A stretch of DNA of 64,000 nucleotides from Calditrichia bacterium (GTDB lineage Bacteria > Calditrichota > Calditrichia > RBG-13-44-9 > J075). Numbering within the stretch: position 1 is the first letter of the stretch; each line of letters starts with the position of its first letter. Positions 19,557 through 29,773 of the stretch are shown piece by piece. The DNA is taken from the NCBI GenBank assembly GCA_050633245.1, contig JBOEGD010000009.1, positions 128,001 to 192,000 on the forward strand, given 5' to 3'. Made by a program: the position numbers and the translations under genes. The notes beneath the pieces are model-generated. The model was not told the origin of the DNA. It saw nothing but the letters and a program-made list of their open reading frames with translations, and did no database searches.

Positions 19557-20552
19557 ATGAAGAACTCAATAATCGTTGGTACCGGACATTACGTACCTCA
19601 GAAGGTAGTGACGAATGCCGACCTCGAAAAATTAATGGATACCTCGGACGAGTGGATACAGGAGCGCACCGGTATAAAGGAACGCCGTTGGGTAAGCGAG
19701 GGTGAAACGCAGTCGTTTATGGCCGAGAAGGCCACGCGCATGGCGCTGGATGATGCCGGGATGCAGCCGGAAGACATTGAGTTTATTGTGTTCGCCGGAA
19801 TTGCCAGTGAGTATATGTTCCCCGGTGGGGCTTGCTTTTTAGGTGAGCGCTTAGGCCTGCCCGGCGTGCCGGCACTGGATATTCGCCAGGCCTGTAGCGG
19901 CTTCGTCTATGCGCTGTCTATTGCCGATAAGTTTATAAAGACCGGCACCTATAAAAACGTGCTGGTTATTTGCAGCGAGATTCAAAGCACCAGCATTAAT
20001 AAAAGCACTGAGGGCCGCGATATTTCGGTGATCTTTGCCGACGGCGCCGGAGCCGCCATGCTGACCGCCACCGACGACAATAGCAAGGGCGTGCTAACCA
20101 CCCATTTACATGCCGACGGCAGCCACAAGGAAAAGCTGGTAGTGCGCAAACCCTCTATTAACGACCCGCAGCGCATTAGTGCCAATACACCGAACGATCC
20201 GGACGTGTACCCCTATATGGACGGACGCTTCGTCTTCAAGCACGCCATTGTAAACTTTAGCAGGGTAATTGGTGAGGCGCTGGCCGCTACCGGTAACCAG
20301 GTGTCTGACATTAATCTGCTGATCCCCCACCAGGCCAATAAGCGTATTAGCGAGATGGTAGGCAAAAAGCTCGGCCTTAGCGAAGAGCAGGTCTTCCACA
20401 ATATTCAGAAATACGGCAATACCACCGCCGCCAGTATACCCATTGGCCTCAGCGAAGCAATGCGCGAAGGACGCATAAAAAAGGGCGACCTGGTATGCAT
20501 GGCGGCCTTTGGTGCCGGCTTTACCTGGGGGAGTGTTCTGGTGAGGTTTTGA
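19557..20552 (+). CDS. fabH: 3-oxoacyl-ACP synthase III
   Basis: DTSDEWIQERTGIKERR; ACSGF (Cys), PHQAN (His), YGNTTAASIP (Asn); FGAGFTWG; AGGAG RBS. Confidence 0.97.
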   Translation: MKNSIIVGTGHYVPQKVVTNADLEKLMDTSDEWIQERTGIKERRWVSEGETQSFMAEKATRMALDDAGMQPEDIEFIVFAGIASEYMFPGGACFLGERLGLPGVPALDIRQACSGFVYALSIADKFIKTGTYKNVLVICSEIQSTSINKSTEGRDISVIFADGAGAAMLTATDDNSKGVLTTHLHADGSHKEKLVVRKPSINDPQRISANTPNDPDVYPYMDGRFVFKHAIVNFSRVIGEALAATGNQVSDINLLIPHQANKRISEMVGKKLGLSEEQVFHNIQKYGNTTAASIPIGLSEAMREGRIKKGDLVCMAAFGAGFTWGSVLVRF

Positions 20553-20632
20553 GTAAGATATTTGATTAGATAGTAATTGACCATTAATGTCAATTACATG
20601 TTGAAGCTTTGGCTATACTTTAGAGACGAAAA

Positions 20633-20722
20633 TGTCGTGCAGAGCGGAGTCGAAGCGCACATTTTCGTTAATTGAGCTGCTAAATGGTTTGTCTAAGCGC
20701 CTCGACTCCGCTCTGCGTGACA
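20633..20722. repeat. 90-bp inverted-repeat element (REP doublet/MITE-like)
   Basis: 26-bp arms TGTCGTGCAGAGCGGAGTCGAAGCGC and GCGCCTCGACTCCGCTCTGCGTGACA; two of three mismatches are G-T wobbles. Confidence 0.8.
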
Positions 20723-20788
20723 AAAATATTGATATAGATTTCAAACCGTAATTCGCATCATTGTTAATAAAGGGTGATTGGGAGATAA

Positions 20789-21232
20789 ATGACTATTGAA
20801 ACTTTTTCTGCAATCGCGCAGATCATAAGTTCAACGGTTGTGATCATATCAATTTTAGTTGCTCTAAGGACGCTAAGCGAAATGAAAAACGCAAGATATT
20901 TAGAGGCAATGCTTAGGATATATGATATGATTGGATCGAAAGAAGCACGAACGGACCGAAAATACGTTTGCAATAAGTTGCCAAACAACCCTGGGAAGTT
21001 AAAGGCAAAGGATTGGGAGATTGTGAACAGGATATCAACTCAATTGGACCGTATTGCAAACTTGGTTCATCATAAGTTAGTACCTGAAAAATATCTTCTT
21101 CACACACATCGGCATCTTTTCATTAAGATGTGGGAACAGCTTGAGGAGCACATAGTTTATTGCCGTTGCAAGGAAGGCGCTGAAAATCACGTTAAAAAAT
21201 TTGAAAAATTCTATAACTTCTGCAAAAATTAA
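20789..21232 (+). CDS. Hypothetical single-TM protein, DUF4760-like
   Basis: N-terminal TM, then LDRIANLV...W..L..HI...R......FEKFY pattern; GGGAG RBS; AT-rich; family assignment from recall. Confidence 0.7.
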   Translation: MTIETFSAIAQIISSTVVIISILVALRTLSEMKNARYLEAMLRIYDMIGSKEARTDRKYVCNKLPNNPGKLKAKDWEIVNRISTQLDRIANLVHHKLVPEKYLLHTHRHLFIKMWEQLEEHIVYCRCKEGAENHVKKFEKFYNFCKN

Positions 21233-21238
21233 TAGAGC

Positions 21239-21301
21239 CTGGTGTGCATGGCAGCCATTGGGGCCGGAGTATACCTGGGGAGTATGTTGGTGCGGTTTTA
21301 G
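21239..21301 (+). repeat. Diverged duplicate of the last 63 bp of fabH (20490-20552)
   Basis: Translates LVCMAAIGAGVYLGSMLVRF* vs FabH LVCMAAFGAGFTWGSVLVRF* (15/20 identical). Confidence 0.92.
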
Positions 21302-21419
21302 GAAGCTAGTCTTGTATTTGCACGTAATAAAAGAAACATTTCAAATTTCTTAAAAGATACCAGCTAACTAACTATATAAGTTGATTTAAATAATCGTAAC
21401 TTTAAAAGACGATTTATTC

Positions 21420-27533: not shown

Positions 27534-28046
27534 GCGAATAAGCCTCCTAAAATCAAGTTCCAGTTAGTTGAATTCCCCAACTCCATACCAAAACCGATTT
27601 TTTTTCCTGGTATACGATACCTCCTTCTCCTTATAAGGTTTAATGGCTCTGAGAATTTTGACATGTGGGCTTGAGTACAACGTTTTAATGTCCCATGACC
27701 GATTATTTGGGATATAAAATAGCGCTCTCGAGCCCGGTTTTTTTGGCGCTCGCAGTAGAACTAGACATGTTGACTTTTGCTGTCTTTGATATTTTGGCAG
27801 ACAGATCCGTACGACAACTCCAAAACCGTAAGCAGGTCAATCAGTAGCGATTAGATTGAGGAAAAAGTATCAATGGAAACCTTGAAAAAATTTTCAAGGA
27901 AAGCAAGACATTTCTTTTTATATACCTGTTTTTAAACAACTTGTAAATATTTATCCAGTGGTTTTGTAGCCGGGTATTGACATCTCGTTTTTATCTGACA
28001 GACAACGGTGACAAGGTTTGTAGATTCCGCTTTCCTATCGATTTCG

Positions 28047-28103
28047 CAAAGCCCGCAGCTGCCACCAAAGTTTTGGGCGGGGTTTATTTTGGTTGGAAAT
28101 TGA
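28047..28103 (+). repeat. Second copy of the last 57 bp of the CHAT gene (24480-24536)
   Basis: QSPQLPPKFWAGFILVGN* vs ENPELPPKFWAGFILIGS*; 41 of the last 45 nt identical. Confidence 0.95.
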
Positions 28104-28142
28104 ACCAGTCTTCAGAACACAGAATAAAAAGCAGGAAACTCT

Positions 28143-29297
28143 TTATTCTGGTCGTATCCAATCTAAATAGTTTTCATGATGAACGATTTTAAACTCTGAA
28201 TGTTGATAGGTGTCCAGCCAAATTTTTGGCGCTCGCGCCTTCGCCCTCGGATTCCACTTGAACTCATAGCCAAAGAGTCTCCCTTCCCTCTCCTCAACCC
28301 AATCAATTTCCTGCTGATCATAGGTTCGCCAAAAATAGTTATTGACAATCATACCGCTGTAAAGCTGGTGTTTTATTCTCTCGCTGATAATATAATTCTC
28401 CCAAAGCATGCCAATATCATTACGCAGCTCAAGAGGATTCATATTCGCAATCAAAACATTGCGCAAACCATTATCATAAAAGTACCATTTGTTCTTCTTT
28501 GCAACTTCTTTGCGCAAATTTCGACTAAACCCGCCAACTCTATGCAACACAAAGACCTTTGAAAGAAGATCAAGATATTTTTCCACTGTGTTCTTCGTCA
28601 GAGACAGCGTATTTCCCAACTCTGCCAGCGACACTTCATTACCAATCTGAAACGCAATAAGCCGCAGAAGACTTAGTATCTTATCGGAATTTTTAATATT
28701 CTCAAATGCCAGTATATCCCTCAATAGATAAGAGTTCACAATTTCGCTGAGGTAGGCGGCCTTCTCGTCATTATTATTGAGATGGACGAGCTCGGGATAG
28801 CTACCGTAAACAAGGCGCTGCCGTAAGTTGTCTCTTTTTGAAACGGAATCTTCAATTTGATCGTACTCAGAGTCAGAGAGTGAGAGCAACGTAAAGGTCT
28901 TTTTTCTACCAGTAAGCGGCTCCCCGGTATATTTACTGATGTCAAAGGCAGAGGAGCCTGTCACCAAAATTCGAATGCCGTCTATTTCATCAACCATCAG
29001 TTTCAGAATGTTGCCGATTTCCGGCACTTTCTGCGCCTCATCGATAAGCACGATGCGCTTATCCCCGAGCAAATTTTTATAATTCTGCACGCTCCGCCTG
29101 GCAAGCACTTCCTGAACGGCAAAGTCTTCGCCATTAAGCAGCATATGCGGCTCATCCAGCTTCTCAATAATTTGCTGAATTAGAACCGTTTTACCCACCC
29201 GTCTTGGCCCAAGCAGAATAACGGCCTTATTGGGCGTCAAACTTTGAAGAACTTGATCTTCTATAGATCTTTTTAAGATTAAATTTGGCATTTTCAT
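28143..29297 (-). CDS. AAA_14 / DUF4143 ATP-binding protein
   Basis: GPRRVGKT Walker A; VLIDEAQ Walker B; VTGSS; GEPLTGR; YFYDNG; YFWRT...EIDW...EFKW. Confidence 0.93.
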   Translation of the reverse strand: MKMPNLILKRSIEDQVLQSLTPNKAVILLGPRRVGKTVLIQQIIEKLDEPHMLLNGEDFAVQEVLARRSVQNYKNLLGDKRIVLIDEAQKVPEIGNILKLMVDEIDGIRILVTGSSAFDISKYTGEPLTGRKKTFTLLSLSDSEYDQIEDSVSKRDNLRQRLVYGSYPELVHLNNNDEKAAYLSEIVNSYLLRDILAFENIKNSDKILSLLRLIAFQIGNEVSLAELGNTLSLTKNTVEKYLDLLSKVFVLHRVGGFSRNLRKEVAKKNKWYFYDNGLRNVLIANMNPLELRNDIGMLWENYIISERIKHQLYSGMIVNNYFWRTYDQQEIDWVEEREGRLFGYEFKWNPRAKARAPKIWLDTYQHSEFKIVHHENYLDWIRPE

Positions 29298-29362
29298 CGA
29301 CTAAATTTAGCTAAAAACAGTCAATAAGTCTACTTTTTTTAGTTTTTTTTGGAATCATGAAG

Positions 29363-29419
29363 GAAAACCCTCGGCTGCCACCAAAGTTTTGGGCCCGGTT
29401 TATTTTAATTGGCAACTAA
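29363..29419 (+). repeat. Third copy of the last 57 bp of the CHAT gene
   Basis: ENPRLPPKFWARFILIGN*; 37 of the last 45 nt identical to the gene copy; in-frame ATG at 29357. Confidence 0.95.
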
Positions 29420-29690
29420 CATAAGTGGATGGAACGAAAAAGAAATAAAGTAAAATACTTGGTGGCACACATGCGCTGCATGAAGTGCGAAAAAATGTCG
29501 ATCAGTATTTTGCTCACAGACAGACCTCACAAAAATTGGATAAAAATGGTCCATACAAAACTCAGAAACAAACGAGCAGCACAACAGAAGGTCAAAATTT
29601 GCCCGATTGCCTCATTGCCAAATGCTGACGATCTTTTCACTTTCCCTATTGTTTTCCGAAAATCAGCATGTTATATTCAGTCCGCTAAAC

Positions 29691-29773
29691 GCTCGGGTGG
29701 CGGAATTGGTAGACGCGCTGGATTTAGGATCCAGTGTCTTCGCGACGTGCGAGTTCGAGTCTCGCCCCGAGTA
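29691..29773 (+). tRNA. tRNA-Leu (anticodon TAG), CCA not encoded
   Basis: Acceptor GCTCGGG/CCCGAGT+A; D-arm GGCGGAATTGGTAGACGC; anticodon arm CTGGA-TTTAGGA-TCCAG; long variable arm; GTTCGAG T-loop. Confidence 0.97.

Follow-up and report, generated by a model that had tools for sequence, protein, structure and literature searches.

A candidate array of single-gene cassettes accreted behind the 3' ends of fabH and a CHAT-domain gene in a Calditrichia bacterium

Introduction

How can foreign genes come to be stacked behind the intact 3' ends of resident chromosomal genes when the stack itself encodes no enzyme that could have inserted them? This question is raised by a locus in the genome of a Calditrichia bacterium (assembly GCA_050633245.1, here G000; 6.35 Mb, 45.3% GC, a draft of 59 contigs), which was analysed within a window of 64,000 nucleotides (nt) corresponding to positions 128001-192000 of the 353-kb contig C9. 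From left to right, the locus is composed of genes for an epimerase, FabH, a DUF4760 protein, a protein with TPR and CHAT domains, a protein of the type IX secretion system (T9SS) type, an ATPase with AAA_14 and DUF4143 domains, and a tRNA-Leu. The DUF4760, T9SS protein and ATPase genes, designated cargos 1 to 3, lie in inserts of 686, 3510, and 1259 nt, respectively, and each insert is bracketed by direct repeats of the last 57-70 nt of fabH or of the CHAT gene, which run to an in-frame stop codon. The outer copies, which no longer belong to a complete gene, are referred to as orphan ends. Gene order, insert sizes and repeats had been reported in a first-pass annotation made from the letters of the sequence, which also proposed an integron-like accretion without an integrase, and all three were reproduced here.

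In this article, we present an in silico analysis of the repeats, the cargos and the neighbourhood, and of comparable arrays in the same and in related genomes. The robust core of the result is that small foreign cassettes were inserted serially at a gene end, each of them with a replacement end from another lineage. The reading which we favour, with confidence evenly divided for and against it, is a serial site-specific accretion of minimal cassettes by an integrase that was lost or acts in trans, similar to that of cis-mobilisable elements (CIMEs) or tycheposons. Genes are understood throughout as called open reading frames (ORFs), no gene finder having been used, and the nearest genomes available for comparison are relatives at the family level only.

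Repeated gene ends behind fabH and the CHAT gene

Two further copies of the final ~60 nt of the CHAT gene (copy 1) lie downstream, with 88% identity in copy 2 and 78-86% identity in copy 3, at spacings of 3567 and 1316 nt, and blastn detected no further copy of this tail in the 6.35-Mb genome. The last ~70 nt of fabH recur once, with 79.5% identity over 73 nt in a gapped alignment that contains two compensating 1-nt indels; the only other match of the fabH tail in the genome is a 60-nt hit of 77% identity on contig C7, and fabH has no close paralogue. Every copy can be read in frame and in the same register to a stop codon (tga, tga and taa for the CHAT copies, tga and tag for those of fabH), and the open frame upstream of the orphans extends for 21-34 codons only, the lower value being that of the fabH orphan, in which the conserved GFTWG motif has been lost through the compensated frameshift. 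The local-alignment scores of 65 (fabH) and 85 (CHAT) compare with a mean of ~20 and a maximum of 31-32 for shuffled sequences, none of 2000 shuffles reaching either value, and a chance origin of the repeats is excluded.

The boundaries of the repeats are discrete. Both CHAT orphans start within 1 nt of one common position, no CHAT homology is present upstream of either of them, and the similarity fades 4-7 nt past the stop codon. A core of 21 nt is identical in the three CHAT copies and is flanked on both sides by similar, non-identical sequence; uninterrupted identity extends for at most 21-25 nt at CHAT (shuffle P 0.09-0.14), 8 nt at fabH and 12 nt at a LolA-like gene described below. In the right arm of the repeat, CHAT copies 1 and 2 agree at 24 of 32 positions and either of them agrees with copy 3 at 19 of 32. 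The outlying position of copy 3 in this arm fits an outermost copy that is the original gene end and an ATPase cassette that arrived first, and copy 3 is probably the original resident CHAT end.

The differences between the copies were counted according to Nei and Gojobori as proportions of synonymous (pS) and non-synonymous (pN) changes, the samples being small. For CHAT copies 1 and 3, pS is 0.49 and pN 0.10, for copies 2 and 3 the values are 0.40 and 0.12, and for the working and the orphan end of fabH 0.49 and 0.17. When the LolA-like pair is included, pN/pS lies between 0.16 and 0.34 in four of five pairs; the exception is CHAT copy 1 against copy 2, with a pS of 0.17, a pN of 0.12 and a ratio of 0.70. 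Since the differences are mainly synonymous, the ends appear to have evolved as working ends in different lineages, as if an incoming element had supplied a surrogate end. Orphan and working ends thus probably represent working gene ends of different lineages which were joined by transfer, rather than duplications formed in place.

The CHAT gene itself is a compositional mosaic. From codon 1 to about codon 880, its GC content at third codon positions (GC3) is 0.30, which is the 0.6th percentile of the genome, and in the last ~160 codons it is 0.58, the 99.7th percentile; the switch is located at ~24040-24090, about 490 nt before the stop codon, and has no counterpart in five other CHAT paralogues of G000. 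The gene has no orthologue in the family, where the best matches show 27-34% identity, and for its C-terminal part the best match in a collection of 5.8 billion proteins shows 48% identity, so that the donor was not traced. CHAT-domain genes are numerous in the family and their C-terminal motif is conserved. Two apparent 71-amino-acid (aa) orphan CHAT C-termini in genome G007 were rejected, as they are genes cut by contig ends.

Cargo genes and neighbourhood

The cargos are foreign or accessory genes and form discrete insertions. This view is based on the singular occurrence of the DUF4760 gene, on the patchy distribution of the homologues of cargo 3, whose nearest relatives are found outside the family, and on the low GC3 of two of the cargos. 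The DUF4760 gene is present in 1 of 86 genomes of the class, namely G000, and a word-based search of the 5.8-billion-protein collection returned only the query itself. Homologues of cargo 3, which PADLOC assigns to the candidate defence system PDC-S01 (2.9e-155; Pfam DUF4143 1.9e-40 and AAA_14 1.1e-25), occur in 39 of the 86 genomes, and the closest ones (59-62%) belong to other families. The GC3 of cargo 2 is 0.37 (3rd percentile) and that of the DUF4760 gene falls in the 8th percentile, whereas the ATPase gene is ordinary with 0.47 (67th percentile). According to published reports, PDC-S01 ranks fourth in frequency among candidate prokaryotic defence systems and awaits experimental validation (PMC12988326), and its family couples an ATPase to a domain of the PD-(D/E)XK superfamily (PMC3424549; PMC12988326). 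Cargo 2 had previously been labelled GH42-like, a weak designation, as the match to Glyco_hydro_42 comprises only 33 residues and, with 19.8 bits, stays below the cut-off of 21; Por_Secre_tail scores 30.8 bits and FlgD_ig 39.8 bits, both above cut-off, and the solid feature of the protein is its T9SS C-terminal sorting domain.

The cassettes are compact, the ATPase gene being separated from the flanking repeats by only 35 and 66 nt, and no other copy of the intergenic pieces of the locus was found in the genome; the 513-nt stretch upstream of cargo 2 was checked by both blastn and tblastx. An inverted-repeat element in front of the DUF4760 gene had been counted as part of the first insert. It is not specific for this insert: it belongs to a dispersed repeat of ~190 nt (20574-20765), of which at least 12 further copies with 72-96% identity are located on other contigs. 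Among 40 relatives searched at the DNA level, matches were reported in G000 only. The repeat looks like a genus-specific element of the miniature inverted-repeat transposable element (MITE) or repetitive extragenic palindrome (REP) type, and it is probably a later insertion into cassette 1.

The description of the array as richer in AT than its neighbours was borne out, with 53-54% GC in fabH and the epimerase gene, ~35% at positions 20553-24050 and 37-43% in the cargos. The epimerase-fabH synteny is retained in most of ten fabH loci compared by tblastn, and the content downstream of fabH differs in all of them. With 0.64, the GC3 of the epimerase gene and fabH exceeds that of all other plausible genes of G000 (genome median 0.455), which is compatible with an imported block. 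Such an import is weakly indicated, because other core genes are rich in GC3, too (0.51-0.58 in the LolA operon, 0.61 in a deacetylase gene). The gap between the epimerase gene and fabH (19122-19541) contains short GC-rich direct repeats of 23-26 nt, with three copies of a family termed D2 and two of a family termed D3. At the right-hand edge, the tRNA-Leu gene was the only feature above threshold in an Rfam search; it is itself not repeated, and no partial copy of it was found nearby. The features of the array are compiled in Table 1, together with those of the related loci treated below.

Table 1 Coordinates of the fabH-CHAT array and of related loci. Positions refer to the 64,000-nt window unless a contig of G000 is named
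Feature	Position	Strand	Description
NAD-dependent epimerase gene	18076-19017		Upstream of fabH
fabH, target gene 1	19557-20552	+	3-Oxoacyl-ACP synthase III; Pfam ACP_syn_III_C 2.5e-36, ACP_syn_III 2.1e-26
Working fabH 3' end	20489-20560	+	Left repeat copy; extends 8 nt beyond the stop codon
Dispersed MITE/REP-like repeat	20574-20765		Holds a 26-nt inverted repeat
Cargo 1, DUF4760 gene	20789-21232	+	147 aa; Pfam DUF4760 1.4e-09; GC 37%
Orphan fabH 3' end	21238-21308	+	Displaced tail; in frame, stop codon TAG
TPR-CHAT gene, target gene 2	21420-24536	+	1038 aa; Pfam CHAT 2.8e-56 plus TPR families
Working CHAT 3' end, copy 1	24480-24540	+	
Cargo 2, T9SS protein gene	24654-27533	-	959 aa; T9SS C-terminal sorting domain
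Non-coding stretch	27534-28046		513 nt, upstream of cargo 2; unique in the genome
Orphan CHAT 3' end, copy 2	28047-28107	+	Reads QSPQLPPKFWAGFILVGN, then stop
Cargo 3, AAA_14 + DUF4143 ATPase gene	28143-29297	-	384 aa; PDC-S01 candidate defence gene
Orphan CHAT 3' end, copy 3	29363-29423	+	Reads ENPRLPPKFWARFILIGN, then stop; most divergent copy
tRNA-Leu(tag)	29691-29774	+	Outer edge of the array; ARAGORN; Rfam tRNA 57.7 bits
LolA island	C12:186056-193990		Four minus-strand genes: 151 aa, 141 aa, DUF6493/DUF7824/DUF7825 (1121 aa), SWIM finger (451 aa)
tRNA-Pro(cgg) array	C11:217631-220841		tRNA at 217631-217705
tRNA-Phe array	C22:24767-30710		Three copies of a composite repeat of nested tRNA fragments plus terminator
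PDC-S01 bracket L178			Locus-specific; genome G075
PDC-S01 bracket L181			Locus-specific; genome G041
PDC-S01 bracket L182			Locus-specific; genome G064
PDC-S01 bracket L183			Locus-specific; genome G022

Search for a recombinase and for integration partners

No recombinase is encoded in the array, as had been stated in the first-pass annotation, and this holds for the entire 353-kb contig: the tyrosine and serine recombinase families PF00589 and PF00239 have six and three matches in the genome, respectively, and none on C9. Pfam revealed no integrase, excisionase, transfer or transposase domain in the cargo genes and intergenic ORFs, and stop-to-stop ORFs in the non-coding parts of the array gave no Pfam match at E<=1. 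Terminal inverted repeats are absent from the cassette ends.

Elements carrying a corresponding attachment site were sought in three collections. Viral contigs contained no exact match either to the CHAT core or to the fabH-tail pattern, exact scans being insensitive to diverged att sites. A degenerate tail pattern retrieved 110 stretches from a collection of genome contigs; each of the 80 that were listed consists of one match, and they come from unrelated taxa and are attributed to chance. With the CHAT protein as query, a single match of 26% identity was obtained in metagenome contigs.

Similar arrays elsewhere in the genome

Displaced gene ends were searched for throughout G000, as proposed in the first-pass annotation, by an ungapped scan with the last 60 nt of 4755 ORFs of at least 150 aa (within 12 kb) and by a blastn scan with 150-nt tails and heads of 7621 ORFs of at least 100 aa (within 50 kb). 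The real orphan tails obtained from both scans were those of fabH, of the CHAT gene (twice) and of a LolA-like gene, the fabH orphan being recovered by the ungapped scan only, and most hits were tandem T9SS paralogues. For ORFs of at least 200 aa, three real orphan tails were counted against one doubtful orphan head. Hits on C32, C4, C16, C36 and C24 and at C11:425556 were discarded because they represent spurious ORFs on the antisense strand, T9SS paralogues in tandem or a paralogue with a frameshift. In the LolA-like gene, the last 159 nt (C12:186650-186808) recur 7.0 kb downstream with 77% identity, without gaps and with the stop codon kept (pS 0.70, pN 0.11), and the island thus delimited contains neither a recombinase gene nor a tRNA gene.

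A self-comparison of the genome revealed further local arrays of low-copy direct repeats around unrelated genes, two of which are anchored at tRNA genes. Behind the tRNA-Pro gene, a 709-nt cassette with a DUF433/DUF5615 toxin-antitoxin pair, a 3' fragment of the tRNA gene, a 2.2-kb cassette with a hypothetical gene and a TIR_2 gene, and a second 3' fragment follow each other. The repeat reaches from the anticodon loop to the 3' end and includes the terminator, its copies are 95-99% identical, and no integrase or remnant of one is present. In the tRNA-Phe array, the tRNA fragments begin at the anticodon arm and the T loop and bracket genes for cNMP-binding, NAD-binding, PIN_3 and T9SS beta-propeller proteins. 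At tRNA genes, repeats starting in the anticodon loop or the T loop are well known as the mark left by tyrosine integrases. The structured repeats found elsewhere in the genome are tRNA fragments plus terminators. The pattern is not confined to the fabH-CHAT locus: it recurs at the LolA-like gene, at tRNA-Pro and at tRNA-Phe and, for PDC-S01, in four other genomes.

Several additional repeats were observed. At C2:76010-77495, a gene for a 410-aa protein with TIR_2 and Lcl_C domains lies between 78-nt repeats that are 82% identical and that begin at the stop codon of an upstream EAD8...Lcl_C gene; a partial tandem duplication is an alternative for this pair, as both genes end in Lcl_C. Direct repeats of 65-180 nt with 72-93% identity form arrays at C14:183342-186559 (with a CAP12/Pycsar-type TIR-TPR protein and a protein of the beta-lactamase fold), C31:33556-39501 (with an AraC regulator and a glyoxalase), C10:277710-286848, C7:119210-124654 and C26:146291-157940. 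They are candidate att sites, promoters or terminators.

PDC-S01 homologues in other genomes

Of 70 examined loci with AAA_14-family homologues, 60 were evaluable, the gene being nearly complete and flanked on each side by 300 nt or more. Direct repeats of at least 35 nt within 300 nt of both gene ends were found at 11 of the 60 PDC-S01 homologues, compared to 17 of 3150 ORFs of at least 250 aa in a control that was drawn from G000 only and in which the 17 include several tandem paralogues. The copy number of the repeat was checked in six cases, and in four genomes (G075, G064, G041 and G022) the repeat occurs exactly twice. Together with G000, these four locus-specific pairs have a spacing of 1284-1351 nt and repeats of 43-65 nt with 82-93% identity, and the five repeat sequences are mutually unrelated. 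In G075, the inner copy is located within the 3' coding region of an upstream 559-aa gene, which continues intact for 54 nt past the repeat.

The other two cases are of a different nature. The repeat in G040 (~130 nt, e.g. C1:4377241-4377374 of that genome) has at least 42 matches of 86-97% identity, 40 of 237 candidates having been scored, and it demonstrates that flanking repeats around PDC-S01 genes can be ordinary dispersed elements. In G082, 11 of 12 matches of the repeat lie in a same-strand array of 20 kb (locus L180, C9:114000-133999 of that genome) and one on a neighbouring contig; the repeat of ~100-190 nt forms a strong hairpin and brackets the PDC-S01 homologue as well as other genes, and the array may be an integron-like cassette array. 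Of the four remaining repeats, two look dispersed by eye.

Possible modes of assembly

In the favoured reading, small foreign cassettes consisting of a promoter and one gene would enter successively at the very 3' terminus of a resident gene, each bringing along a further copy of the final ~60 nt of this gene. A recombination event within this stretch would fuse the incoming copy to the gene, which stays intact, and would displace the older end outwards as an orphan. At the CHAT gene, the PDC-S01 ATPase cassette would have been the first to arrive, leaving copy 3, followed by the T9SS-protein cassette, leaving copy 2, and the DUF4760 gene would have been brought by a separate event at fabH. 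The ~60-nt repeats would then correspond to attL, attI, and attR sites, the joining would have been catalysed by a tyrosine integrase that has since been lost or that acts in trans, and the cassettes would be minimal cis-mobilisable elements. What the data show directly are the repeats with their shared boundaries, the foreign character of the cargo genes, the absence of a cis-encoded recombinase and an orphan-end divergence that took place under selection; the order of events, the site-specific chemistry and a present-day mobility of the units are what we infer from the arrangement. Site-specific joining is favoured by the discrete common boundaries, by the stacking with the oldest end outermost, as expected from accretion (PMC5704250; bioRxiv 10.1101/2020.12.28.424599), and by the position of the repeats within the tRNA-Pro and tRNA-Phe genes in arrays that are tiny and integrase-less themselves. 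As the footprint at tRNA-Pro, and at least in part that at tRNA-Phe, occurs in equally small arrays devoid of an integrase gene, a lost or trans-acting integrase is the more conservative assumption.

Several observations weigh against this reading. Neither an integrase nor a remnant is present in the three cassettes of the locus, the LolA island and the two tRNA-Pro cassettes, no PF00589 or PF00239 match was found at the tRNA-Phe array, and the family is poor in tyrosine recombinases altogether, with 2-12 per genome, Xer-like ones included. No matching attP-bearing element was detected, and neither tail is copied elsewhere in the genome. The cassettes are reduced to a tight minimum, as illustrated by the short flanks of the PDC-S01 gene and by the size of the toxin-antitoxin cassette, which is not predicted by a random decay of larger islands. 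The identical core lacks statistical support, given the shuffle P values for CHAT and the short runs at fabH and LolA, and the occurrence of PDC-S01 between five unrelated repeats in five genomes is a poor fit to a single sequence-specific integrase. Finally, a crossover within a 60-nt repeat leaves the composition break of the CHAT gene unexplained, whereas homologous recombination in the gene body explains it.

It is these points (the missing integrase and attP, the minimal cassettes, the absence of an identical core at fabH and LolA, the CHAT break and the five unrelated repeats) that fit better to an accretion guided by homology alone, which we regard as possible, if rather doubtful. Here, a cassette flanked by two copies of a gene end would spread between lineages by ordinary homologous recombination, in which the orphan tail forms one arm and the conserved gene body, or else the working tail, forms the second, or a circle with one tail would integrate by a single crossover. 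The donor end would replace that of the recipient, which becomes the orphan, and stacking would result when the orphan of the donor pairs with the working tail of the recipient. Such a process needs no missing enzyme, in accordance with the lack of a cis-encoded recombinase in any cassette, and it would account for orphan ends that resemble those of another lineage and share their boundaries, for a GC3 switch as from a crossover in the body of the CHAT gene, and for PDC-S01 between locus-specific repeats. The top GC3 of the epimerase gene and fabH, which directly precede the fabH repeat, would agree with the import of a left arm, an interpretation weakened by the other core genes of high GC3. 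For arrays of the type VI secretion system (T6SS) and of Rhs genes, a serial displacement of 3' ends that is independent of an integrase and rests on homology-facilitated recombination has been proposed (PMC5361080). This model, however, gives no account of the origin of an initial repeat pair at a fresh target, the copies with their 77-88% identity and identical runs of 8-25 nt are a poor RecA substrate, and the tRNA-Pro repeats start exactly at the anticodon loop, which points to an integrase. The proposal of an integrase-free serial accretion in the first-pass annotation was thus sustained with regard to discrete, serially stacked inserts bracketed by gene ends; independence of an integrase is the less conservative assumption, the tRNA arrays carrying the footprint of such an enzyme.

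A static variant, which we consider unlikely, assumes that the cassettes were never mobile and that the orphans are scars of one-sided recombination ('C-terminal displacement'), in which fragments of diverged alleles were anchored by homology and joined illegitimately at their far end within the last 60-160 nt of the gene. Orphan ends from other lineages, the mosaic CHAT gene, the lack of an identical core for fabH and LolA, and orphan lengths that differ between the loci (60, 63-70, and 159 nt) are consistent with such homology-facilitated illegitimate recombination, a mechanism put forward for effector-immunity arrays of the T6SS and for strings of Rhs 3' regions left as orphans (PMC5361080; PMC2884548). 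Two independent joins no more than 1 nt apart in the CHAT gene would, however, be expected by chance in well under 1 in 100 cases, the boundaries on the right agree as well, the repeat spacing of ~1.3 kb around PDC-S01 in five genomes suggests a unit, and the orphan fragments of G000 are mainly downstream gene ends, as seen from the ratio of tails to heads.

Even less can be said for a transposition-like insertion with a long target-site duplication (45-80 nt), effected by the cargo or by a general process of the host, with the outer copy decaying afterwards, which is very improbable. The PDC-S01 protein would be a conceivable agent, as an ATPase-nuclease acting as a selfish mobile gene: the family descriptions cited for cargo 3 link its ATPase to a PD-(D/E)XK-superfamily domain (PMC3424549; PMC12988326), its homologues are bracketed far more often than the control ORFs, and four genomes have exactly two copies of the repeat at a nearly constant spacing. 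That enrichment, however, is partly due to dispersed repeats such as the one in G040 with its 42 matches. The outer copies do not behave as neutrally decaying duplicates, their pN being too low for this: non-synonymous change is 3-6 times rarer than synonymous change in four of five pairs, and stop codons and frames are kept. In addition, no pair is more than 93% identical, the intact gene of G075 runs on past its repeat and the outer copy does not, which is the opposite of the expectation, unrelated cargos (DUF4760, T9SS protein, TIR, toxin-antitoxin) share the bracket, and neither terminal inverted repeats nor a transposase domain are present. The remaining possibility, raised already in the first-pass annotation, that the tails are remnants of eroded full-length tandem paralogues, or else an assembly artefact, is scarcely credible, since, in spite of the many CHAT-domain genes with a conserved C-terminal motif in the family and of a draft genome in 59 contigs, the orphans begin within 1 nt of each other with no CHAT homology in front, fabH has no close paralogue and a single weak tail match on C7, CHAT tails are absent elsewhere in the genome, and a misjoin is expected inside an identical k-mer, whereas non-identical similarity flanks the 21-nt core on both sides.

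Relation to known systems

The closest counterparts of the array as seen under the favoured reading are CIMEs and accreted elements of the ICESt1/ICESt3 type, in which newcomers integrate at an att site carrying a gene end and thereby create attL-attI-attR arrays (PMC5704250). The array resembles them in being bounded by direct repeats that include the 3' end of the target, in leaving the gene intact, and in the absence of integrase, excisionase and transfer genes. It differs in the size of the units, which are 0.7-3.5 kb and hold one gene, in the targeting of two adjacent protein genes, fabH and CHAT, and in that no related integrase-bearing element was seen in this genome. In the tycheposons of Prochlorococcus, newcomers push older elements outwards and partial tRNAs remain between the units (bioRxiv 10.1101/2020.12.28.424599). 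Common to both are successive integration at one site, partial target copies between the units, and remnants in a degenerate state; in contrast, tycheposons as described there carry tyrosine recombinases and target tRNA genes, while at the present locus protein-gene ends are involved and neither a recombinase nor a fragment of one was found. Partial tRNA copies between units, the feature of tRNA islands, are missing at tRNA-Leu and present at tRNA-Pro and tRNA-Phe in the same genome.

In loci for Rhs proteins, contact-dependent inhibition (CDI) systems and T6SS effectors, incoming DNA serially displaces the 3' end of a gene and creates strings of orphans without the participation of an integrase, for which homology-facilitated illegitimate recombination was proposed (PMC5361080). 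Serial displacement with older ends downstream, as indicated by the outlying copy 3, and a mosaic main gene, as indicated by the GC3 switch of CHAT, are shared with these loci. Their orphans, however, are long and variable toxin domains accompanied by immunity genes, whereas those of the array are conserved non-toxic ends of 57-70 nt (19-20 codons) and the inserts bear genes that have no relation to the target gene.

Integrons and attC clusters consist of single-gene cassettes with repeats of 57-141 nt, the newest cassette being nearest to the insertion point, and an integrase can be absent. Their arrays can carry toxin-antitoxin and defence-type cargos. The array differs from them in that its repeats are ends of resident genes and not cassette-borne attC hairpins: the CHAT copies fold no better than shuffled sequences (z 0.86, -1.12, and 1.43), and the fabH tail is unstructured, too. 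Moreover, two of the three cargos are on the opposite strand, no intI-like gene is located nearby, and no tyrosine recombinase is encoded on the contig. The earlier characterisation as integron-like without attC is therefore a fair analogy, whereas the missing hairpins, the missing intI and cargos that are not co-oriented speak against membership.

Publications already exist on integrase-less accretion at gene 3' ends, on islands made up of tandem remnants and on 3' ends that are displaced serially (PMC5704250, PMC5361080, bioRxiv 10.1101/2020.12.28.424599). The combination of single-gene cassettes behind two adjacent protein genes, integrase-less arrays of the same style at tRNA genes of one genome and a PDC-S01 bracket of ~1.3 kb shared by several genomes is apparently undescribed; no such cassettes are mentioned in the titles, abstract openings and some passages of the literature on PDC-S01 and COG1373/DUF4143, which is weak evidence.

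Implications

Should the cassettes be no more than decayed islands, the locus would be a common, if remarkably neat, case of accretion at the 3' ends of protein genes. A bolder reading, speculative and more to be doubted than trusted, is that promoter-plus-gene cassettes make up a mobile class of their own, whose sole cis-acting part would be a surrogate 3' end of a resident tRNA or protein gene. Such cassettes would carry defence or conflict genes (for the PDC-S01 ATPase-nuclease, TIR proteins, toxin-antitoxin pairs and secreted proteins), would be stacked behind the gene, and would owe their movement to homologous recombination of the host or to a recombinase encoded elsewhere; they would be represented at several loci of this genome and, with PDC-S01, in at least five families of the class, and would resemble integrons without intI or attC. 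As true mobile units, they would show how individual defence genes disseminate and accumulate beside conserved genes in the absence of visible mobile machinery, which would bear directly on the puzzle of integration 'hot spots' that lack integrases. For PDC-S01, the unit of ~1.3 kb with locus-specific repeats in several genomes provides a concrete lead.

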